From contig JBBTXS010000001.1 of the NCBI GenBank assembly GCA_038062115.1, positions 10,607-74,606 on the forward strand: DNA of 64,000 nucleotides. The letters are read 5' to 3'. Position numbers and translations under genes: made by a program. Below, piece after piece: positions 2,160 to 14,069 of this stretch (the stretch's first letter is position 1; each line of letters starts with the position of its first letter). Source of the stretch: Patescibacteria group bacterium. GTDB lineage: Bacteria; Patescibacteriota; Microgenomatia; Levybacterales; UBA12049. The notes under the pieces were generated by a model, which saw only the letters and a program-made list of their open reading frames with translations, did not search any database and was not told where the DNA came from.

Positions 2160-2588
2160 ATGTTTGATTCGTTTGCTATCAAATACCAAAAATTTGCTCC
2201 AGTTTTTTTACGTATAGGTTTAGCTTTATTATTTGTTCTATTTGGACTTCAAAAGTTATTGCATCCTAGTCAAACTACTGCTGAGATACAGTTGCTCACA
2301 AATTTCGAATTGGTAGATGCTGCGGCTTTAAATTTTTATTTGGGACTCCTTGAGCTTTTCGTTGCAGCATCTTTTTTACTTGGTTTCAAAGTAAGATTAT
2401 TTGCTCTAATTTCTTTTTTACTAGTTGCCATGTTCTTCCTTTCGTTTCTGAGTCGGTATGGCGTATCACTAAATCCAGATTTGTATCGCGATGTAGGATT
2501 GGTAGGGGCATCAATAGCATTATTCTTACTAGGAGCAGGACCTCTAAGCCTTGATAACCCTTCCAATAAAAAAGAAAGTAATGAATAA
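2160..2588 (+). CDS. DoxX-family membrane protein
   Basis: A small protein of four predicted TM helices. The N-terminal pattern FLRIGLALLFVLFGLQKL resembles DoxX/DoxD-like proteins. Confidence 0.55.
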   Translation: MFDSFAIKYQKFAPVFLRIGLALLFVLFGLQKLLHPSQTTAEIQLLTNFELVDAAALNFYLGLLELFVAASFLLGFKVRLFALISFLLVAMFFLSFLSRYGVSLNPDLYRDVGLVGASIALFLLGAGPLSLDNPSNKKESNE

Positions 2589-3060
2589 ATATCTTGGTTT
2601 AGCTTTGTTTAGTGTATTCTTACTGGCAAGTGGATTTATCTATCAGGCATACTATCGTCCCGCTAGTATTGAAAGGATTAAGTCTACGGGTAAAGCAGTA
2701 TTTATTAACATGCGGGTCATAAAGAATCATTGGAAGTGGGATCCTGATACAATAAAAGTTAAACCTGGAGATAAGATAGTCCTAAACATTTATAACGAAG
2801 ACACATATGACCATGGGTTTGCAATAGATGTATTCGGGGTTAATCGCAGGTTATTTCCCCAAACTACAACTGTGGTTGAATTTACGCCTTCTTTGGTTGG
2901 CAAATTTAATTTTTATTGTTCAGTGCCCTGCGGAGAGGGTCATTATGACCAAATTGGTACTCTTATTGTGGGAGACGGACATGTTAGATCAGGTATATAT
3001 CCTAATAAGAACTTTGCATGTAGTACGACTAATAAAATGGTGCATTCTATGTCATTCTGA
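2581..3060 (+). CDS. Membrane-anchored cupredoxin-like copper-binding domain protein
   Basis: An N-terminal TM anchor is followed by a pattern typical of cupredoxin_1-type domains found next to Cu-ATPases: WDPDTIKVKPGDKIVLNIYNEDTYDHGF ... FYCSVPCGEGHYDQIGTLIV. The preferred start is ATG 2581 (the ORF track gives 2551). The C-terminal tail runs into a repeat element. Confidence 0.65.
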   Translation: MNKYLGLALFSVFLLASGFIYQAYYRPASIERIKSTGKAVFINMRVIKNHWKWDPDTIKVKPGDKIVLNIYNEDTYDHGFAIDVFGVNRRLFPQTTTVVEFTPSLVGKFNFYCSVPCGEGHYDQIGTLIVGDGHVRSGIYPNKNFACSTTNKMVHSMSF

Positions 3061-3101
3061 ACTTGATTCAGAATCTAGATTCCCGCTTTTGCGGGAATGA
3101 C
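3051..3101. repeat. GTCAT...ATGAC palindromic MITE-like element (short, two hairpins)
   Basis: Sequence: GTCATTCTGAA-CTTGA-TTCAGAATC-TAG-ATTCCCGC-TTTT-GCGGGAATGAC. The termini GTCATTC and GAATGAC are inverted. It sits between the cupredoxin gene and copA and supplies a spurious ATG at 3097. Confidence 0.65.
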
Positions 3102-3114
3102 GAAGGGTGTTTTT

Positions 3115-5571
3115 ATGAAAGAAAAGCCCCAATTTACTCAAAAACTCTATAGAATTCAGGGAATGCACTGCGCTTCCTGTGCTGTTTTAATTAACACAGT
3201 TCTACAAAAACAAAAAGGAGTAGAGTCTGTAAATGCAAGTTTTGGAGCTGAAAAACTTTCTATTTCATTTGATCCAAATGTTATACCCGAGGAAAAAGTA
3301 TTGGGTTTTGGTAAATCTTTGGGATACTCTTTTGTGTCGGAGGAGTCAAGAACTGAGGATGAATTTAAAAAAGAAAGGGATGCTCATATCAGAGAGCTTA
3401 GAAATAGAACTATTGTAAGTTTTCTTCTTTCAAGCCCTATTATTGCATATTATATGGCAGTTCACATGTTTAATCTTAAGCATGTCCACGCAATAATGGT
3501 TGGAAGTTTATTTATAGATTTAAACTGGATTTATTTACTAATGACAATTCCAGTTCAATTTTGGGTGGGATGGATTTTTTATAGAAGCGCCTGGACGGCA
3601 TTTAAGGTTGGTTCAACCTCGATGGACACGCTTGTAGTTTTGGGAACGAGTGCTGCATTTTTTTATAGTCTTATTGGCTTTCTGTTTTCAACTACCTATG
3701 GAAAGCTACAAACACTCTGGATAGGACTTGATCATCCTTTTTGGGAGTCATCTGCTGCTTTAATGTCGTTTTTAATTATGGGCCGCTTCCTTGAAGCTGT
3801 GTCTCGTGGAAAAGTTTCTGAGGCAGTAAGTAAATTGTTGCAGCTTGCACCAGAAAAAGCAATTTTACTTAAAAACGGTGAGGAAAAAGAAATTCTGGCG
3901 AGCGACTTAAAAAAAGACGATATATTTATTGTTAAGCCTGGAAGTAAAATTCCAACAGATGGAATAATTATTAAAGGCGAATCGGCATTGGACGAAAAAA
4001 TAGTAACAGGAGAATCAATGCCAGTCAATAAAAAAGTAAACGACGAAGTAATTGGGGGTACAGTAAATTCGTATGGATTGCTTCACTGTAAAGCAACTAA
4101 AGTTGGAAGCGAGACTTTACTACACCAAATAGTTAGAATGGTTCGCGAGGCTCAAGCAACAAGAGCACCGCTTCAACGCGTTGCAGACTGGATATCCGAA
4201 CGATTTGTGCCAACAGTTATAGTTTTAAGCCTTATCTCCTTTAACTATTGGTATTTTATAAAAGCAGACGGTTTTACTCCATCGCTTCTTTTTATGGTTG
4301 CAGCACTTATTATTTCTTGTCCATGTGCTTTGGGATTAGCAACTCCTATTGCTACTATGGTTGGTACAGCAAAAGGCGCTGAGTCTGGAATATTAATTAA
4401 AGGCGGAGAGGCTTTAGAAAAAGCGCATAAGATTACAGCGGTTGCGTTCGATAAGACAGGAACTTTAACAAAGGGAGAACCAGCTGTGACAGACGTCATT
4501 GCAATTAATTCCTCTGTCATTGCGAGGAGCGAAGCGACGAAGCAATCTCACGAGATTGCCACGGGTTCTTCGAGCCCTCGCAATGACATATTGAGGCTTG
4601 CTGCAGTTGCCGAGAGAGGTTCGGAACACCCCCTCGCTCAAGCTGTAGTTAAAAAAGCAAAAGAACTAAATTTAGAAGTTCCGGAGCCTGAAAACTTTAA
4701 AACAATTTCAGGGATGGGAGTTTCATCAGACTATAAAGGGAAACAAATTATGGTTGGGAATCAGCTTTTTATGGAGAAAGAAAGCATCAATATAAACGAG
4801 ATTGCTTCTGAGGTAAATAGACTTAGAGCTGAGGCAAAAACTGTGGTCTATGTTGCGTATGATAAAAAAGTTATTGGATGTGTTGCCCTTGCCGATACGC
4901 TCAAGAAACATTCTATTGCTGCGATAAATGCTCTAAAGAAGAGAAAAAAAGAAATAATTATGATTACTGGCGATAACGAACAGACTGCTCATGCAATTGG
5001 AAAGCAGTTGGGAATAGACAAGGTTTATGCCAATGTGTTGCCTGAGAAAAAAGAAGAACTTATTGAGTCTATTAAGAAAGAGGGTAAGGTAGTTGCTTTT
5101 GTTGGGGATGGGATAAATGATTCGCCAGCACTGGCCAAGAGTGACTTGGGTATTGCTGTTGGGTCTGGTACTGATGTTGCAATAGAGACTGGAGAAATAA
5201 TTCTTGTTCGCGATGATCTTCGAGATGTGGTTACAGCGATTGATCTTTCACAAAAGACAATCTATAAAATCTGGCAAAACTTTTTCTGGGCTTTTGTTTA
5301 TAATATAGTTGCGATTCCTATTGCTGCAGGACTGCATCTGGTATTTACTCGACACAGTGGGATTCCGGCGGGCTGGGTAACTTACCTCGGAGATGTTTAT
5401 TCTCTGATTCCAGTTATTGGCAATGAGGTTTCTTCTATTTGGCTAAATTTGTCCCAATCTGCTTTAAGGCCGGAAATCGCCGGATTTGCCATGGCATTTT
5501 CATCAGTCTCGGTTGTCCTCAACTCCCTTCTCCTTCGCCTCTACAAAAAACCAAAATTCGCGGATTCTTGA
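3115..5571 (+). CDS. copA: Copper-translocating P1B-type ATPase
   Basis: The protein carries an N-terminal HMA domain (GMHCASCA), the CPC motif (SCPCALGLATP), DKTGTLT, the HP motif (SEHPLA), TGDN and GDGINDSPAL. An SD-like AAGGG precedes ATG 3115. The ORF-track start at 3097 lies inside the repeat. Confidence 0.95.
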   Translation: MKEKPQFTQKLYRIQGMHCASCAVLINTVLQKQKGVESVNASFGAEKLSISFDPNVIPEEKVLGFGKSLGYSFVSEESRTEDEFKKERDAHIRELRNRTIVSFLLSSPIIAYYMAVHMFNLKHVHAIMVGSLFIDLNWIYLLMTIPVQFWVGWIFYRSAWTAFKVGSTSMDTLVVLGTSAAFFYSLIGFLFSTTYGKLQTLWIGLDHPFWESSAALMSFLIMGRFLEAVSRGKVSEAVSKLLQLAPEKAILLKNGEEKEILASDLKKDDIFIVKPGSKIPTDGIIIKGESALDEKIVTGESMPVNKKVNDEVIGGTVNSYGLLHCKATKVGSETLLHQIVRMVREAQATRAPLQRVADWISERFVPTVIVLSLISFNYWYFIKADGFTPSLLFMVAALIISCPCALGLATPIATMVGTAKGAESGILIKGGEALEKAHKITAVAFDKTGTLTKGEPAVTDVIAINSSVIARSEATKQSHEIATGSSSPRNDILRLAAVAERGSEHPLAQAVVKKAKELNLEVPEPENFKTISGMGVSSDYKGKQIMVGNQLFMEKESININEIASEVNRLRAEAKTVVYVAYDKKVIGCVALADTLKKHSIAAINALKKRKKEIIMITGDNEQTAHAIGKQLGIDKVYANVLPEKKEELIESIKKEGKVVAFVGDGINDSPALAKSDLGIAVGSGTDVAIETGEIILVRDDLRDVVTAIDLSQKTIYKIWQNFFWAFVYNIVAIPIAAGLHLVFTRHSGIPAGWVTYLGDVYSLIPVIGNEVSSIWLNLSQSALRPEIAGFAMAFSSVSVVLNSLLLRLYKKPKFADS
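4516..4587. repeat. GTCAT...ATGAC palindromic MITE-like element inserted in frame in copA
   Basis: The element is 72 nt (24 codons) with perfect 12-bp terminal inverted repeats GTCATTGCGAGG / CCTCGCAATGAC. An internal hairpin is GCAATCTC-AC-GAGATTGC. It encodes VIARSEATKQSHEIATGSSSPRND. Confidence 0.8.
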
Positions 5572-5611: not shown

Positions 5612-5986
5612 ATGATTTTAAAGTCTAAAGACCGAGGAAAGTTTTTATCGCTTTTGCTAGCATTAAGCTTCTTTGGAATATTAGCAAGCGCGCCACAAGC
5701 AGTCGACCCTGATGTGATGTCGAGATTCCATGGTATGTTACCTGTATGGTATAGGTTATGGGTGACAATATACCTAGTTTCACAAATTGTAGTTCTTATC
5801 GGAATATGGAAGCGGAAAAGGTTTGCCGTATACGCATTTTTCCTTTTGAGCGGGATTCAGGTAGTGCTTATTAGTACCGCATTGAAACCAATTTACGATT
5901 CACATATCATTGCTATTGCTGTCTTTGCAATGTGGCAGGGTCTTTGGGTATGGGCAATCAAGCGTAAATGGCATATCTTTATTTAA
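5612..5986 (+). CDS. Hypothetical small membrane protein
   Basis: The ORF has four predicted hydrophobic helices and no motif I recognise. Confidence 0.4.
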   Translation: MILKSKDRGKFLSLLLALSFFGILASAPQAVDPDVMSRFHGMLPVWYRLWVTIYLVSQIVVLIGIWKRKRFAVYAFFLLSGIQVVLISTALKPIYDSHIIAIAVFAMWQGLWVWAIKRKWHIFI

Positions 5987-6174
5987 TAATTATGCATCTT
6001 TTAATAGCTCCTAGGTTTTGGGTTCACTATAGAACTAAAATTAATTTTAGTAAACATAATATGAATTATAGATGTTGTGTTTAAATATCAAAAAGGGTTT
6101 CGCGCAGATTTTGCTGGAGCAAAAATTGTGATGTTGTGTAAAGTTCTATATCATTTGAAAGGAATTTAAAAAAT

Positions 6175-6621
6175 ATGAGTAGTGAAAAATTTACATTATT
6201 ACACGCAGCGGTTTACTTTATGCTTATTAAAGATGGCAAAATACTTCTTGTTAGACGTTTTAATACTGGTTGGCAAGATGGAAAATATAGCCTTATCGCA
6301 GGACATCTTGAGAGGAATGAGACAGTTAAACAGGCAATGATAAGAGAAGCAAAAGAAGAAGCAGGAATTAATCTTAACCCAAAGGATTTACATATTGTAC
6401 ATACCATGCATAGGAAGTCTAAGGATGACCTTGAATATATTGATTTTTTCCTAAGTTGCGATACATGGCAAGGGAAGCCTAGGATAACAGAGCATGATAA
6501 ATGTGACGACATGCAATGGTTTTCTCTTAAAAACCTTCCTGAAGATACATTACGACACATAAGAAAAGCAATAGAAAGCTATTCAAATAAGATTTCATTT
6601 TCCGAGTTGGGTTTTGAATAA
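6175..6621 (+). CDS. NUDIX hydrolase
   Basis: The Nudix box is GHLERNETVKQAMIREAKEEAGI (GX5EX7REUXEEXGU). Confidence 0.85.
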   Translation: MSSEKFTLLHAAVYFMLIKDGKILLVRRFNTGWQDGKYSLIAGHLERNETVKQAMIREAKEEAGINLNPKDLHIVHTMHRKSKDDLEYIDFFLSCDTWQGKPRITEHDKCDDMQWFSLKNLPEDTLRHIRKAIESYSNKISFSELGFE

Positions 6622-6626
6622 TTAAT

Positions 6627-7109
6627 ATGCAAAGAAATATAGCTGTAGCGCTTGAGTGTTTTGTTAAAAAGGATGGAAAATACTTAATGCTTCATAGGAG
6701 TAAGAATAAGAAAATAATGCCAGATGTCTGGATGGCGCCTGGAGGAAAGAGAGAATTTAATGAAAGTTTGTTTGAGGCTGCTAGACGAGAGATTAAAGAG
6801 GAGACAGGACTTGAAATTAAAAATCTTCGAATCAAAGCAACGGGTAATGCGTATCTTAAAGATTTAGATCAAGAACTATATTTTCATTTTATAGTTGGTG
6901 ATTACGCTGGGGGAAAGCTCAAACAAAACTCTGAAGACGGAGAATTTATGTGGTTAACGCCTAAAGAAATATCAAAACTTAACAATCTACTTTCGGAAAT
7001 TCGTGAAGTTATGCCTTATATTTTTACTAATGATGACAAGGTCATTTCTTACAAGGCAGTATACGAAAAAGGAAATAAAATGGTCGACTTCCAAATTGAA
7101 AAACCTTAA
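6627..7109 (+). CDS. NUDIX hydrolase (second, tandem)
   Basis: The Nudix box is PGGKREFNESLFEAARREIKEETGL. Confidence 0.85.
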   Translation: MQRNIAVALECFVKKDGKYLMLHRSKNKKIMPDVWMAPGGKREFNESLFEAARREIKEETGLEIKNLRIKATGNAYLKDLDQELYFHFIVGDYAGGKLKQNSEDGEFMWLTPKEISKLNNLLSEIREVMPYIFTNDDKVISYKAVYEKGNKMVDFQIEKP

Positions 7110-7321: not shown

Positions 7322-7354
7322 TTGACAAAGAGGATAAAAGAGTTCTACTATAAT
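7322..7354 (+). promoter_or_regulatory. Sigma70-like promoter candidate for copZ operon
   Basis: TTGACA lies at 7322-7327. The -10 candidates are TACTAT (7346-7351, 18-nt spacer) and TATAAT (7349-7354, 21-nt spacer). A T-rich tract lies upstream. The ATG at 7363 has no SD, so the transcript may be leaderless. Confidence 0.4.
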
Positions 7355-7362
7355 TATGTAAG

Positions 7363-7584
7363 ATGCCAATAATTACAAAAAAAGCTCTTAATATAGAAGG
7401 CATGCATTGCAATTCCTGCGCATCGGGGATTCAGCTGGTTTTGCAAAACACAGACGGCGTTTTGAATGCAACTGCCAGTTATGATTCCAAAAAAGGCGAA
7501 GTTGAGTTTGACGAGGAAAAAACGAATTTGGAGAACATTGTTAAGTCAATCGAGCAACTGGGATATAAGGCGACGCCGCAGTAA
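7363..7584 (+). CDS. copZ: Heavy-metal-associated (HMA) copper chaperone
   Basis: A 73-aa protein with the GMHCNSCA metal-binding motif and ferredoxin-like HMA length. Confidence 0.85.
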   Translation: MPIITKKALNIEGMHCNSCASGIQLVLQNTDGVLNATASYDSKKGEVEFDEEKTNLENIVKSIEQLGYKATPQ

Positions 7585-7685: not shown

Positions 7686-8000
7686 ATGAAGTCTTTATTA
7701 AGTTTTTTCTCAACCACTAGTTTGTTGTTATTAACGCTTGCGGAGCCTGCTTTTGCAAATGGAGACAGTCACCCACCAGGAACTCCACACACAGAGGAAG
7801 CAACAAGTATAGATCCCGTAATAGTTGTTGGTATTGCAATAGTTTTGGTAATTGGCGGTTTTATACTTTGGAAATTTGTTCTTCATGGTCCTAAATCATC
7901 TTTACCTAATCAATTATCCTCGTCTGAAAAAACGCCACCTGTTCAGGAAAAAAATGTTTCTCAGAGCAATCTGGGTGATAATCCTCCAAAGAATGGATAG
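7686..8000 (+). CDS. Signal-peptide plus single-TM anchored protein with short His/Pro-rich ectodomain
   Basis: The ORF has a signal-like N-terminus ending AFA-NG, then GDSHPPGTPHTEE, a TM helix and a low-complexity tail. An SD (AGAGGA) lies 7 nt upstream. Confidence 0.5.
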   Translation: MKSLLSFFSTTSLLLLTLAEPAFANGDSHPPGTPHTEEATSIDPVIVVGIAIVLVIGGFILWKFVLHGPKSSLPNQLSSSEKTPPVQEKNVSQSNLGDNPPKNG

Positions 8001-8002
8001 AT

Positions 8003-10072
8003 ATGGATGAGACAACTGCCAATGTCCCTGCGCAAGCTCCTGTAGAGAATAAAGTTCCTGTTGTTCCTGGAAAAAAACATCCACCTTTGTTGTTTCTTAT
8101 TCTGCTTTTCGGTTTAATAGGTATATTTATTTATGGGTTGAGGTTTGTATTTTCTTTAGGTAGCGGGGATGTAGGCTCTGTTCCTTTTCTTCTTTTTGAC
8201 TATACGGTTGGACTTACAATGATTTTTCTTCCCTGCACTCTGCCGCTTGCCTTTGTTATCGTGCCACTTGTGATGGGTAAGTCGTACCAGAAAGGAATTG
8301 GCATGGCTTTGGCATTTGGATTGGGGGTAACTATTACTCTTAGTTTCTATGGGGTGCTTATTGGATTGTTGGGTCAGGCGCTTGGAATCCACCAAGTTGA
8401 GACTGCAAAAAATATTTTGTATGCGGTAGCAGGTCTATTTGCAATTCTTTTTGCTCTGGGAGAGCTTAAGCTTATTCGTTTTGCAGCTCCTGTTTATGGG
8501 GGTGCTGTTCCACAATTTATCATGAAACAAAAAGATATTGCAAAAGCGTTATTTCTTGGTCTTTTTTTGGGAAATGTAGGAGTAGGCTGTCCGAATCCTC
8601 TTTTTAACGCAGTAATTATTCCTCAGATCATTGCTACAGGCGATGCTTTCCAAGGGTGGCTCATTATGTTTGTGCAGGCGCTTGGACGTATCACTCCACT
8701 TTTTATCCTTGCGTTTCTTGCAATTTTGGGGATCAATGCGACTCGATTTCTTGTTCTTCACAAAGATGCGGTTAGTAGGATTACAGCTTGGTCTACAATT
8801 TATATTGGTGGATTTTTGCTTACCCTTGGACTTTTTGGACACGATTGGTGGGTCATCTCGGGAATGCATACTTTTGTAGAGTTTGTGACTCAAGAAAACT
8901 TTGTCACAAATCTTCTTGGGAGCAAGGTCCAAGAACTTGGACATACTCACGGGATTCCAACTGGAGCAGGATTATTCGGCATGCCTATTGCTTTGGGAAC
9001 CCCATTTATCCTTTTTATCTGGATCTTTCCAATGGTTTGGTACTATCTGTTCAAAAAAAAGAGCATCATTACACTTCCTCCCGAGCAGCAAGCGTTTGAG
9101 AAAAGATATACACGTCTTATTGGCTGGTTTTTTGTAGTCGTGTCGCTTTGGCTCATAACGGTTTTTGGATATTTTCTTCCCCATATGTTTGCAGATCATT
9201 GGTCCAAAATGGGGCATGAGGGGGAGGAAATAGATCATATGATGAAAGAGAAGACAGTAGAAAAGCAAGATTTTCATGCAACACTTTCAAGCACTCCATC
9301 GGCAATTCAAGCTGCTAAACCATTTACACTTAAGGTTGTTCTGCATGATAAACGCGGCAGACCAGTTAACGATTTACAGATATCTCATGAAAGAATTTTG
9401 CACGTAATTTTGGTAAGCGAAGACATGGAAGAGTTTAAGCATGTTCATCCAGAAGATGCAAAAAATTATGTAGCAAAAACTGGACAGACTGAATTTGAAA
9501 TTCCTATAACTCTTTCAAAAGCCGGGCGTTACAGAGTTCTGGTTGATGGATCTAGAAAAGGAGTAGGGGAGGTATCCGATCTTGGGTGGCTTGAGGTTGG
9601 AATTGTCGGAGATAGCGTGGGAGAACCAGTTCTTATAAAGAAAGATCGTCGTCTAAATCGAATATTTGGAGAATATGATGTTTCACTAGTGCCGACTCCT
9701 CACAATGCTCTTAGATCAGGAGAGAAAACACAATTAAGCTATTTTATTAGAGATAGAGAAACTGGCAACCCAATCTTTGATATAGAACAATATCTTGGCG
9801 CTGACATGCATCTTGCGATTATGTCTATTGATTTATCTACTATTCTTCATACTCATGGAGCAAGATGGGAGCCAAAGTTGGGGCCAAATCAAGGTGTCGC
9901 GTTTCCAGAGATCCGAGCAAACTACACTTTTCCCTATCCAGGGCTTTGGAAAATCTACGGACAATTCCAGCATAAAGGCAAAGTTGTGACGACTGAGTTT
10001 ATGGTGGAGGTTGCGCCGGGCATAATGGATGCTCAAAACATGGCTCCGCATATGGATGACAATGGGCATTAG
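8003..10072 (+). CDS. Fusion protein: CcdA/DsbD-like thiol-disulfide transporter core plus two tandem His-motif beta-sandwich-like domains
   Basis: The CcdA-like signatures are FLPCTLPL and GVGCPNPLF in TM helices. The C-terminal ~270 aa contain two repeats of the pattern HxxLxS.D...F.H.H (ILHVILVSEDMEEFKHVHPED and MHLAIMSIDLSTILHTHG). Confidence 0.6.
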   Translation: MDETTANVPAQAPVENKVPVVPGKKHPPLLFLILLFGLIGIFIYGLRFVFSLGSGDVGSVPFLLFDYTVGLTMIFLPCTLPLAFVIVPLVMGKSYQKGIGMALAFGLGVTITLSFYGVLIGLLGQALGIHQVETAKNILYAVAGLFAILFALGELKLIRFAAPVYGGAVPQFIMKQKDIAKALFLGLFLGNVGVGCPNPLFNAVIIPQIIATGDAFQGWLIMFVQALGRITPLFILAFLAILGINATRFLVLHKDAVSRITAWSTIYIGGFLLTLGLFGHDWWVISGMHTFVEFVTQENFVTNLLGSKVQELGHTHGIPTGAGLFGMPIALGTPFILFIWIFPMVWYYLFKKKSIITLPPEQQAFEKRYTRLIGWFFVVVSLWLITVFGYFLPHMFADHWSKMGHEGEEIDHMMKEKTVEKQDFHATLSSTPSAIQAAKPFTLKVVLHDKRGRPVNDLQISHERILHVILVSEDMEEFKHVHPEDAKNYVAKTGQTEFEIPITLSKAGRYRVLVDGSRKGVGEVSDLGWLEVGIVGDSVGEPVLIKKDRRLNRIFGEYDVSLVPTPHNALRSGEKTQLSYFIRDRETGNPIFDIEQYLGADMHLAIMSIDLSTILHTHGARWEPKLGPNQGVAFPEIRANYTFPYPGLWKIYGQFQHKGKVVTTEFMVEVAPGIMDAQNMAPHMDDNGH

Positions 10073-10312: not shown

Positions 10313-10579
10313 ATGGGTAAGAATATTACTATTCAGCTTGTATCCACTCCAGGTTGTACTCATTGCGAGGAGGTACGAAAAGTACTGCATGAAGTGAAAT
10401 CGCAGTATCCGCAAATGCAGATACAAGAACTCGATGCAACAAATCCGGACGGATTAGAACTTGTCGCCAAGCATGGTATTTTGGCAAGCCCTGGAGTTAT
10501 CATTAACGGAGAGCTTTTCGCAACAGGAGGGCTTAATAAAGACAGTTTTATTAAAAAATTAGCCTCTCTAAAAAATTAA
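10313..10579 (+). CDS. Small thioredoxin/glutaredoxin-like protein (CxxC)
   Basis: An 88-aa protein with a PGCTHCEE active-site-like motif near the N-terminus, in the size class of single-domain thioredoxin-fold proteins. Confidence 0.7.
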   Translation: MGKNITIQLVSTPGCTHCEEVRKVLHEVKSQYPQMQIQELDATNPDGLELVAKHGILASPGVIINGELFATGGLNKDSFIKKLASLKN

Positions 10580-12812: not shown

Positions 12813-12892
12813 GTCATTGCGAGCGTGAGCGAAGCAATCCCCTTCTTTTTGAGATTGCTTCGTCTCAGGCTTCGCCTGATCCTCGCAATGAC
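12813..12892. repeat. GTCAT...ATGAC palindromic MITE-like element
   Basis: The element is 80 nt with 11-bp perfect terminal inverted repeats GTCATTGCGAG / CTCGCAATGAC. It lies in the ftsW-murG spacer and is read through by the GTG-initiated ORF-track extension. Confidence 0.75.
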
Positions 12893-12914
12893 AATAGAAC
12901 AGTTTAGAGTTTAT

Positions 12915-14069
12915 ATGAAAATAGTAATTGTTGGTGGTCATTTGGCTCCAGCGTTAGCGGCAATAGACAATTTACCTAAAGATACAAAACTTCTGTTTAT
13001 TGGAAGAAAATATACTTTTGAAGGAGACAAAGCTTTGTCTTTGGAGTATAGAGAGATTACTAAACGCAAGGTCCCGTTTACAAATGTCATAAGCGGAAGG
13101 CTTCAGAGAAGGCTCACTCGCCATACAATCCCTTCACTTATAAAAGTTCCATATGGATTCATTCAGTCTTTTTTTATCTTGCAAAAGTTTAAGCCAGATG
13201 TGTTTTTAGGTTTTGGTGGGTATTTATCTTTACCTCTTGGTTTAGCAGCTTTTATTTTAAGAATCCCGATTGTTATTCACGAGCAAACATTAGAAGCAGG
13301 TATTGCGAATAAGATTCTTTCGTTTTTTGCTAAAAAGATCTGTATTTCATGGGAATCATCAAGAAAATTTTTTCCAAAAAATAAAACTGTTCTTATTGGA
13401 AACCCGATACGAAAATTTTCTCTGTCATCCCGACCAAGCCCGAAGGGCGCGTGGAGGAATCTCGGAGATTCCTCGACTCCGTTTCACTTCGCTCGGAATG
13501 ACACCCCTATTATTTACATCACTGGTGGGAGTTCTGGCTCGCACTTTATAAATACACTGGTTGAGGGCTGTATCAAAGAGCTATTGGAAAAGTTCGTCAT
13601 TATTCACCAAACAGGAGATGCGCAAGAATACCGTGACTTTGACCGACTTAACAATCTTAGAGATAGTCTACCATCAAAATTAAAAGCAAGATACTTTCTG
13701 ATAAAATTTGTTGAACCGAAAGACGTTGGATCATGTTTACAAAAAGCGCATTTAGTAGTTTCACGCGCTGGTATAAATACTATAACAGAGCTTATTTTTT
13801 TAAAAAAGCCATCTTTGTTGATTCCTCTGCGTTATTCCCAAAATAACGAACAAATAAAGAATGCCCTTTTTTTAAAAAGCCTAGGGCTTGGGGAAGTTTT
13901 GGAACAAGGCCATTTAAGCTCGCAAAAGTTTTTGCAAAAAGTAATAGAGATGGTTAATAATATAAATAAGTATAAGATTAAAGATAAATCTAATGCTTTA
14001 ATCAATAAAAATGCTGCCCAAAAGATAATTGAAGTCATTCAATATGCTACAAAGAGCAAGAAAAACTAA
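12915..14069 (+). CDS. murG: UDP-GlcNAc:lipid I N-acetylglucosaminyltransferase
   Basis: MKIVIVGGHLAP, HEQT, GNPIR and TGGSSGS motifs of the GT28 MurG fold, plus dcw position, support the call. The start moves to ATG 12915 because the 12825 extension is repeat-encoded. Confidence 0.9.
   Translation: MKIVIVGGHLAPALAAIDNLPKDTKLLFIGRKYTFEGDKALSLEYREITKRKVPFTNVISGRLQRRLTRHTIPSLIKVPYGFIQSFFILQKFKPDVFLGFGGYLSLPLGLAAFILRIPIVIHEQTLEAGIANKILSFFAKKICISWESSRKFFPKNKTVLIGNPIRKFSLSSRPSPKGAWRNLGDSSTPFHFARNDTPIIYITGGSSGSHFINTLVEGCIKELLEKFVIIHQTGDAQEYRDFDRLNNLRDSLPSKLKARYFLIKFVEPKDVGSCLQKAHLVVSRAGINTITELIFLKKPSLLIPLRYSQNNEQIKNALFLKSLGLGEVLEQGHLSSQKFLQKVIEMVNNINKYKIKDKSNALINKNAAQKIIEVIQYATKSKKN
13424..13502. 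repeat. GTCAT...ATGAC palindromic MITE-like element embedded in frame in murG
   Basis: The element runs GTCATCCCGACC ... CTCGGAATGAC with an internal 10-bp palindrome GAGGAATCTC/GAGATTCCTC. It encodes roughly SSRPSPKGAWRNLGDSSTPFHFARND in the interdomain linker. Confidence 0.7.

Follow-up and report, generated by a model that had tools for sequence, protein, structure and literature searches.

Architecture of the fusion protein

The window analysed here is a stretch of 64,000 nucleotides from a Patescibacteria group bacterium (contig JBBTXS010000001.1). Its list of open reading frames (ORFs) contains one, at positions 8003-10072 of the forward strand, whose 689-residue product combines a membrane module resembling the CcdA/DsbD reductant conduits with two tandem C-terminal repeats bearing conserved histidines. 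This fusion protein is the subject of the present study. P0001, which is identical to it, bears the annotation 'hypothetical protein, Patescibacteria group bacterium'. An initial annotation, based on the nucleotide sequence, had described a CcdA-like conduit joined to two outward-facing His-motif domains, forming a metal-binding or metal-reducing module powered by a cytoplasmic thioredoxin. The four motifs on which it relied lie where it had placed them: FLPCTLPL at residues 75-82, GVGCPNPLF at 193-201, ILHVILVSEDMEEFKHVHPED at 465-485 in repeat 1 and MHLAIMSIDLSTILHTHG at 602-619 in repeat 2. The ORF is organized as follows (TM, transmembrane helix; AF2, AlphaFold model; pLDDT, predicted local distance difference test).

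8003..10072, + strand: whole ORF, CcdA-like membrane module followed by two YtkA-like repeats, 689 residues
8087..8155, + strand: TM0, an additional N-terminal helix, residues 29-51 (hydropathy, AF2 helix 29-51, loop charges)
8180..8857, + strand: six-helix core of CcdA/DsbD type, residues 60-285 (DsbD_TM match, alignment with DsbD)
8234-8236 and 8588-8590, + strand: codons of the core redox cysteines C78 (LPCTLP) and C196 (GCPNP)
8837..8986, + strand: outside loop between TM6 and TM7, residues 279-328, putative copper site (conservation, loop charge)
8987..9196, + strand: TM7 and TM8, residues 329-398, bringing the chain back to the outside (AF2 helices 329-355 and 360-398, pLDDT 92-98)
9263..9637, + strand: repeat 1, residues 421-545, YtkA-like beta-sandwich (Pfam YtkA at 420-513, AF2 strands)
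9638..10033, + strand: repeat 2, residues 546-677, homologous beta-sandwich (hhalign to repeat 1, AF2 strands)
10034..10069, + strand: disordered His/Met-rich C-terminal tail ending in APHMDDNGH (pLDDT below 50)

Nine membrane helices were delineated by hydropathy and by two AlphaFold models, one of the full-length protein (mean pLDDT 86.5) and one of the membrane part only (pLDDT 84.5, predicted template modelling score 0.82). Conservation and charge statistics were derived from 108 full-length homologues, which are 38-79% identical to the protein of the window, with a mean column identity of 35%. Mean net charges alternate along the chain. The loops assigned to the cytoplasm carry +2.3 (TM1-TM2), +2.2 (TM3-TM4), +1.5 (TM5-TM6) and +1.5 (TM7-TM8, which averages 4.3 lysines plus arginines), and those assigned to the outside -0.5 (TM0-TM1), 0.1 (TM2-TM3), -0.7 (TM4-TM5) and -3.4 (TM6-TM7); the C-terminal region reaches -15.9. 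This alternation puts the N-terminus in the cytoplasm and indicates that the TM6-TM7 loop and both repeats are extracytoplasmic. Two further observations agree with outside repeats: some homologues end in an additional anchor helix with a basic tail behind it, and in sister proteins the position of the repeats is filled by domains of the nitrite reductase NirK or of multicopper oxidases. NirK and multicopper oxidases are extracytoplasmic enzymes. The predicted topology is thus not cytoplasmic, and the outward orientation proposed initially holds. The C-terminal tail closes with HxH in the family consensus, and H683 is present in 76 of the 108 homologues.

The CcdA/DsbD-type membrane module

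The Pfam family DsbD_TM (PF02683) matches residues 67-238 with 37.6 bits, above its gathering cut-off of 27.1 bits, over profile positions 9-183 of 219. DsbD_2 reaches a lower score (23.8 bits), and the NCBIfam models DsbD and TsoB give weak partial matches only. A scan of the 689 residues found two cysteines in all, C78 and C196, and both are invariant across the 108 homologues. Alignment of the family membrane profile with the E. coli MG1655 DsbD precursor (hhalign, P 1.2e-4, probability 55%) pairs them with C182 and C304, positions that correspond to C163 and C285 of mature DsbD, its catalytic pair. LPC78TLP is thereby matched with TPC182VLP, and GC196PNP with SPC304TTAP. In both AlphaFold models the first and fourth core helices are interrupted at the cysteines, with breaks at residues 76-79 and 190-198. 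Motif 2 (GCPNP) has a glycine in place of the first proline of (P)CxxP. The profile match and the alignment indicate that the membrane core is homologous to DsbD/CcdA and retains both cysteines, as had been proposed. No internal 3+3 symmetry was detectable when helices 1-3 of the core were compared with helices 4-6 by hhalign (probability 1%). When the protein and the family profiles were searched against PDB sequences, no solved CcdA was retrieved, and the matches to claudin-3, to an intimin-like Ig repeat and to PmoD (E 0.59) were discarded as insignificant or generic.

The module thus shares with the CcdA/DsbD beta domain a significant match to PF02683, two invariant cysteines in broken helices and an adjacent gene of thioredoxin type. 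In contrast to CcdA/DsbD, it has one additional helix in front of the core and two behind it, and its second motif lacks the proline before the cysteine. Its outside domains are free of cysteine and of copper type, whereas those of CcdA/DsbD are thioredoxin or Ig-like domains with CxxC. It also differs by an invariant histidine/glutamate cluster in an outside loop. This loop, between TM6 and TM7, comprises 50 residues with two short helices in the AlphaFold models, and its residues H280, H289, E293, E298 and H314-x-H316 are invariant in the full-length homologues. They are equally invariant in the variants that carry NirK, a multicopper oxidase or the membrane part only. We infer from this conservation that the cluster is a putative copper site of the membrane module.

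The tandem histidine repeats

Comparison of the sub-alignments of repeat 1 and repeat 2 by hhalign gave a probability of 99.5% and an E-value of 1.5e-22 over 109 columns, so the duplication is real; pairwise BLASTP detects it weakly (E 0.003). H467, H480 and H482 in repeat 1 and H603, H616 and H618 in repeat 2 are invariant in the 108 homologues, H462 is conserved at 98%, and H462, D474 and D610 lie within 91-98%. Among 144 diverse cluster representatives of the tandem module, the signature histidines are at least 98% conserved. Such conservation indicates that the H-x12-H-x-H signature of the repeats is far beyond chance. The initial annotation had proposed a longer common signature, H-x-x-(I/L)-x-S-x-D-(M/L)-x-x-(F/L)-x-H-(V/T)-H; its claim of tandem homologous repeats with invariant histidines stands, but position 12 of repeat 2 is Ile and not Phe or Leu.

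In the AlphaFold models both repeats are all-beta, with pLDDT mostly above 90. Each presents a hairpin (strands 466-472 and 478-481 in repeat 1, 602-608 and 614-622 in repeat 2) with the first histidine on one strand, HxH on the next and the aspartate in the turn. Such a modelled arrangement would allow a site of three histidines.

Pfam YtkA-like (PF13115) matches repeat 1 at residues 420-513 with E-values of 4.6e-4 to 5e-5, and 13 of 29 family members give matches with E below 0.01 (best E 5.7e-7). Relatives fused to CopC-CopD score 28-34 bits against the same family. These matches suggest that the repeats are divergent YtkA/CtaK-like domains. YcnJ of B. subtilis has the organization CopC-CopD-YtkA (PMC12362106). 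CtaK (YtkA) has conserved His/Met residues and a His-rich tail, cooperates with Sco to assemble the CuA centre and is regarded as the functional counterpart of PCuAC; the CuA cysteines are kept reduced by TlpA (PMC9145763). Like CtaK and the YtkA domain of YcnJ (PMC9145763, PMC13344008, PMC12362106), the repeats are extracytoplasmic beta-sandwiches tethered to the membrane, in which histidines are conserved and a tail rich in histidine follows; they also share the attachment behind a copper-related membrane domain and a genetic link to CuA assembly. Unlike those proteins, the domain is here duplicated, carries the signature H-x4-H-x12-H-x-H / H-x12-H-x-H and stands behind a CcdA-like instead of a CopD domain.

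A profile built from the C-terminal region was run against 1.84 billion cluster representatives. The tandem module was found in 5571 clusters (50% identity) at E <= 1e-3, of which 816 at E <= 1e-30, and the top matches were mostly other than CcdA fusions. The architectures encountered were CopC plus CopD plus tandem module (about 900-990 residues), CopD plus module (about 460-620 residues) and the module alone (about 300 residues); in one locus a free-standing module adjoins copC, copD and cutA1 genes. The module is much commoner behind CopC-CopD copper transporters than behind a CcdA-like core. Four stretches of P0182, a 2304-residue predicted protein of the green alga Mesostigma viride, also match it, which could be a genuine eukaryotic occurrence or a contamination.

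The repeats match no non-metal family. Their metal-binding role, as initially proposed, is supported on a comparative basis by the YtkA-like matches, by the fusions to CopC-CopD and by the neighbouring genes for CopA, CopZ and a CuA-type cupredoxin described below. Foldseek with the full-length model returned generic tandem Ig-like domains as top matches. The metal-binding Zcp/DUF4198 domains appeared with E of about 3e-4; they rank no better than PD-L1 or complement domains, so we claim no specific relationship. Homology of 'FKHVHPED' to the copper site 'FHVHEFGD' of Cu,Zn superoxide dismutase was dropped because the order of the ligands along the chain differs.

The gene cluster and its conservation

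The ORF lies in a cluster of forward-strand genes, among them the following.

2160..2588, + strand: small membrane protein, DoxX/MauE-like (Pfam DoxX, E 1.8e-8)
2581..3060, + strand: membrane-anchored CuA-type cupredoxin (Pfam Cupredoxin_1; phmmer match to the Thermus CuA domain)
3097..5571, + strand: CopA, P1B ATPase of Cu(I) type (Pfam E1-E2_ATPase, Hydrolase and HMA; CPC, YN and MxxSS motifs)
5612-5986, + strand: membrane protein of 124 residues, no Pfam family
6175-7109, + strand: two tandem NUDIX hydrolase genes
7363..7584, + strand: CopZ-like HMA copper chaperone with MHCNSCA (Pfam HMA, E 2e-17)
7686..8000, + strand: small His-rich single-pass protein, 104 residues, no Pfam family
10313..10579, + strand: protein of Thioredoxin_3 type, 88 residues, CTHC, without signal peptide (Pfam Thioredoxin_3, E 2.5e-10)

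The cupredoxin at 2581-3060 matches the CuA fragment of Thermus ba3 oxidase subunit II (phmmer, E 7.7e-11 to 1e-8). Its spacing is H-x34-C-x3-C-x3-H-x2-Q, and in the alignment HGF is matched by HGF and CSVPCGEGHYDQ by CNQYCGLGHQNM, so that the ligands are His, Cys, Cys and His, and Gln stands at the position of the Met ligand. To our knowledge, CuA centres are otherwise found in oxidase subunit II, in N2O reductase and in few other proteins; no oxidase gene is present near the cupredoxin gene in the window. The cupredoxin is a probable client or partner of the fusion protein. With the Cu(I)-type CPC/YN/MxxSS motifs of the ATPase and the CuA cupredoxin partner, mercury and other soft metals were set aside. 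The metal is almost certainly copper, judging from the kinship of the repeats with YtkA/CtaK-like domains, the CopC-CopD fusions, the recurrent gene cluster, the NirK or multicopper oxidase of sister proteins and the His/Glu cluster of the outside loop.

The thioredoxin-like protein at 10313-10579 would be cytoplasmic and is a candidate electron donor; it matches the NCBIfam model of the MJ0307-family thioredoxin weakly (32 bits against a cut-off of 92.75). The stop codon of the small protein at 7686-8000 lies 2 nucleotides before the ATG of the fusion gene. The small protein begins with a signal-like sequence and contains a conserved GGF(I/L)LWKFVL helix (GGFILWKFVL in the window); its His-rich segment, SHPPGTPHTEE, lies outside. 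Its counterparts are encoded directly upstream of the fusion in loci L006, L007, L008, L009 and L021 and downstream in L005, and it may be an extra subunit. Promoter and terminator scans gave the same counts as shuffled sequence, the sole hint being TTGACA-18-TACTAT at 7322-7351, just upstream of copZ.

Scanning one genome per GTDB species revealed relatives in at least 331 genomes. Neighbours were counted within 6 kb on either side in the best 80 loci, nearly all of which are labelled as Patescibacteria or other lineages of the candidate phyla radiation (CPR). A CuA-type cupredoxin is encoded in 69 of the 80 loci (within 1.5 kb in 53), CopA in 66 (48 within 1.5 kb), a Thioredoxin_3-like protein in 61 (52 within 1.5 kb), a small HMA protein in 58 (19 within 1.5 kb) and a DoxX-like protein in 54 (43 within 1.5 kb). 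The thioredoxin-like proteins carry CxxC in 60 of the 61 cases. This recurrence is consistent with the initial proposal that the protein at 10313-10579 is the power source. H-x34-C and CxxxC are retained by the cupredoxin homologues, 24 of 71 have the spacing seen in the window, and an insertion of about 8 residues precedes H-x2-M/Q in 47 of 71.

In most Parcubacteria-type loci the gene immediately upstream of the CcdA-like one is DoxX/MauE-like. Its occurrence together with DsbD-family and cupredoxin genes is reminiscent of the mau cluster of methylamine utilization. One homologue, 70% identical, comes from a 3.5-kb contig binned as 'uncultured Gammaproteobacteria' (L008, CAZPZA010000099.1); since the other listed loci are labelled as CPR lineages or simply as 'bacterium', this is probably a binning error.

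Exchange of the outside domain

The membrane module, including its His/Glu loop, is strongly conserved while the outside domain varies. The tandem module is present in 63 of the 80 loci. It is encoded as a separate gene adjacent to that of the membrane part in L047, L055, L067, L070 and L076, and in L081 and L083 the membrane module is followed by a His-rich tail only. Matches of multicopper-oxidase type occur in 16 of the 80 loci and are fused to the membrane module in 14.

Two variants, P0069 and P0050, qualify as copper-containing nitrite reductases by the NCBIfam equivalog cut-off of 296.3 bits, with scores of 322.7 and 318.5 bits. P0069 (L005, 347-2527) has its NirK domain behind a nine-helix CcdA-like module, and its gene is followed by those for an HMA protein (CopZ), the small protein and a Thioredoxin_3 protein. 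P0028 and P0033 are laccase/CueO-like. P0033, a multicopper-oxidase fusion (L006, 4148-6412), lies in the order DoxX, cupredoxin, CopA, HMA, small protein, fusion, Thioredoxin_3, which is the order of the window except for three genes inserted in the window between copA and copZ. These are the genes for the 124-residue membrane protein and the two NUDIX hydrolases (5612-7109), absent from the L006 order. Multicopper-oxidase fusions also occur in L054, L062-L064, L071, L073-L075, L077, L080, L082, L085 and L086. Some of them exceed 1000 residues and contain His/Met-rich linkers and a C-terminal anchor helix; in L082 an additional Ig-like domain follows the oxidase. Since the same membrane module carries NirK and multicopper oxidases, its general role would be to feed extracytoplasmic copper centres.

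Proposed function and its alternatives

We propose that the fusion protein belongs to the CcdA/DsbD family of transmembrane thiol-disulfide electron conduits, that it is dedicated to copper, and that it has its extracytoplasmic copper-handling domains built in. As to its function, our tentative preference, which we rate slightly short of an even chance, is for a thioredoxin-driven reductant conduit feeding extracytoplasmic copper sites, in which Cu(II) would be reduced and Cu(I) chaperoned to assemble the adjacent CuA cupredoxin. Family membership and conserved synteny suggest that the cytoplasmic thioredoxin-like CxxC protein (10313-10579) reduces C78 and C196 in the membrane; the occurrence of a Thioredoxin_3 gene alongside the NirK and multicopper-oxidase variants L005 and L006 supports this donor role. 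The reduced cysteine pair would then hand electrons over at the outer face, where a copper ion may be held by H280, H289, E293, E298, H314 and H316 of the loop. Cu(II) would be converted to Cu(I), which, by homology and by analogy with the CopC-CopD fusions, the two YtkA/CtaK-like domains could keep or relay through sites of three to four histidines. Copper, and possibly also reductant for the two CuA cysteines, would finally reach the co-encoded membrane-anchored cupredoxin, while CopZ and CopA would provide Cu(I) from the cytoplasm.

One polypeptide would thus unite two activities of CuA assembly, the thiol reductant path (CcdA to TlpA or Sco) and the Cu(I) chaperone (PCuAC, or CtaK in Bacillus). 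The CuA assembly systems composed of a TlpA/Sco reductant and a PCuAC Cu(I) chaperone, and fed by CcdA/DsbD, require that the CuA cysteines be reduced and that Cu(I) be inserted (PMC9145763). The same two needs would apply here, where the cluster also encodes a CuA-type client. In contrast to those systems, no homologues of TlpA, Sco or PCuAC were seen here, the activities would be fused in one membrane protein, and the client is a free-standing cupredoxin with Gln for the Met ligand instead of an oxidase subunit.

Several observations weigh against this conduit and assembly scheme. The extracytoplasmic part of the protein contains no cysteine, and neither the window cluster nor the inspected loci, in which no systematic search was made, showed a gene for an exported thioredoxin-fold protein; a classical CcdA relay would thus have no obvious acceptor other than bound copper or the CxxxC of the cupredoxin, which is the sole outside cysteine pair nearby. 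Foldseek with the membrane-only model gave no significant PDB match (best E 0.13) and no CcdA structure. The YtkA-like score of the protein, 21.2 bits for the whole chain and 24.3 bits for its C-terminal fragment, stays just below the cut-off of 25.9. At loci bearing multicopper oxidase or NirK, the cupredoxin is present and the tandem module is absent within 6 kb, so the repeats are not indispensable for the cupredoxin. Finally, the usual partner of the tandem module elsewhere is a CopD transporter.

This last point favours the main rival, that the CcdA-like module is a Cu(I) permease analogous to CopD or to the MerT-type Cys-pair transporters, which we consider unlikely. Copper would be captured by the outside His domains and the loop and moved by the cysteine pair, through the elevator movement proposed for the family, to or from CopZ, while the thioredoxin-like protein would merely keep the cysteines reduced. 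Indeed, it is exactly behind CopD, a putative copper importer, that the tandem module sits in other bacteria, and an HMA chaperone gene adjoins in many loci. CopC, CopD and a multicopper oxidase form a classical combination of copper systems, as in Pseudomonas copABCD, and DsbD belongs, in Saier's classification, to the LysE superfamily, which holds several metal-ion transporters. The Pseudomonas-type CopA (multicopper oxidase)/CopC/CopD systems likewise contain a membrane protein together with an outside copper-binding beta-sandwich or multicopper oxidase, but here the membrane component is CcdA-like instead of CopD and is accompanied by a thioredoxin. The likeness to CopD and Mer transporters is positional only, no match to CopD (PF05425) or to the Mer transporter families being found in Pfam or NCBIfam. 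Moreover, DsbD_TM, the electron-carrier family, outscores DsbD_2 and both halves of the redox motif are retained. The tightly conserved dedicated thioredoxin gene suits an electron conduit and is not known as a feature of CopD or Mer systems. Import followed by re-export for the loading of cuproenzymes, which would agree with a transporter, is a current model (PMC13344008).

A second alternative, likewise improbable in our view, is an electron chain running from thioredoxin through the cysteine pair, the loop copper and the CuA cupredoxin to extracytoplasmic copper oxidoreductases. The His domains would then be catalytic or electron-accepting and not chaperones, and the NirK and multicopper-oxidase fusions would reduce nitrite or O2. 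CuA centres are electron-transfer centres, the His/Glu loop is invariant regardless of the attached domain, and the same module is fused to NirK domains that pass their cut-off and to multicopper oxidases, with a gene order that includes Thioredoxin_3 and cupredoxin. Against this, electron donation to a metal centre is not known for any CcdA/DsbD protein, and CueO-type oxidases, which are supplied with electrons by their substrates, are not known to require such a chain. The tandem His module, moreover, sits mostly on CopD transporters without an evident electron source, which argues that it binds or hands over copper instead of performing redox catalysis. Cupredoxins are cited as electron donors of NirK, whose electron path in CPR bacteria is described as unknown (PMC5581439).

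Least probable of all is copper tolerance of the ScsB/ScsC kind, in which a separately encoded thiol oxidoreductase outside the membrane would be reduced by the module and would repair disulfides damaged by copper, while the repeats would only sequester or sense the metal: a DsbD-family conduit is indeed tied to copper there (ScsB reduces ScsC, E. coli dsbD was isolated as cutA2 and adjoins cutA in MG1655) and the cluster holds the standard resistance pair CopA/CopZ, but those systems act via a soluble CxxC thioredoxin-fold partner, for which no secreted candidate was evident in the window cluster or the inspected loci (no systematic search was made), and the invariant His/Glu loop and the NirK and multicopper-oxidase fusions would be left unexplained.

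A wider proposal, which we regard as doubtful, is that the CcdA-like module with its putative His/Glu copper site on the outside is a minimal electron-transport device of a new kind. It would accept electrons from cytoplasmic thioredoxin, switch at the outer membrane face from the two-electron chemistry of thiols to the one-electron chemistry of copper, and feed the CuA cupredoxin and fused copper enzymes. The fused enzymes would be NirK, a multicopper oxidase or, in the protein of the window, the two His-site domains. Were it true, the CPR cell surface would gain thioredoxin:nitrite, thioredoxin:O2 and thioredoxin:Cu(II) oxidoreductase activities, and the question of how CPR NirK obtains its electrons would be answered.

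Novelty and significance

Both halves of the protein come from known superfamilies. No curated NCBIfam model covers it, a literature search on Patescibacteria, CcdA and copper found nothing, and source records label the homologues 'hypothetical' or 'cytochrome c biogenesis protein CcdA'. The initial view that the combination is not a characterized family is therefore upheld. The repeats themselves appear to belong to the YtkA/CtaK superfamily, a relation that the initial annotation did not mention. As far as can be told, what is new is the joining of CcdA to the tandem repeats, the His/Glu site on a DsbD-family protein, the use of a metal instead of a CxxC acceptor, and the exchange for NirK or multicopper oxidase. 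Copper as the metal, TM0 and hence a total of nine helices, the histidine cluster of the loop, the CuA cupredoxin partner and the NirK and multicopper-oxidase exchanges were absent from the initial annotation.

CPR bacteria are generally inferred to be without respiratory electron-transport chains; many carry copper enzymes such as NirK, for which neither the source of electrons nor the route of metal loading is known, and a cupredoxin has been noted in NirK-bearing CPR genomes (PMC5581439). A reductant conduit physically joined to copper domains within a conserved cluster offers a testable route for copper-centre assembly or electron delivery outside the cell, and the protein may show how CPR bacteria reduce and load copper extracellularly. 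If the conduit reading is true, this would be the first DsbD-family protein with a metal site, not a CxxC protein, as acceptor. A function would follow for the large uncharacterized tandem His-domain family (the 5571 clusters), most examined members of which are on CopD-type proteins.

Other features of the window

The G+C content is about 0.34-0.41 over the first 28 kb or so of the window and then mostly about 0.26-0.34, with 0.36 at 52-54 kb. The ORF at 12825-14069 on the forward strand occupies the MurG position after MraY- and FtsW-like ORFs, as named by sequence. It is listed with a GTG start and has an unusual Leu/Arg-rich leader, LRLLRLRLRLIL, and its true start is probably an internal Met downstream of the GTG.

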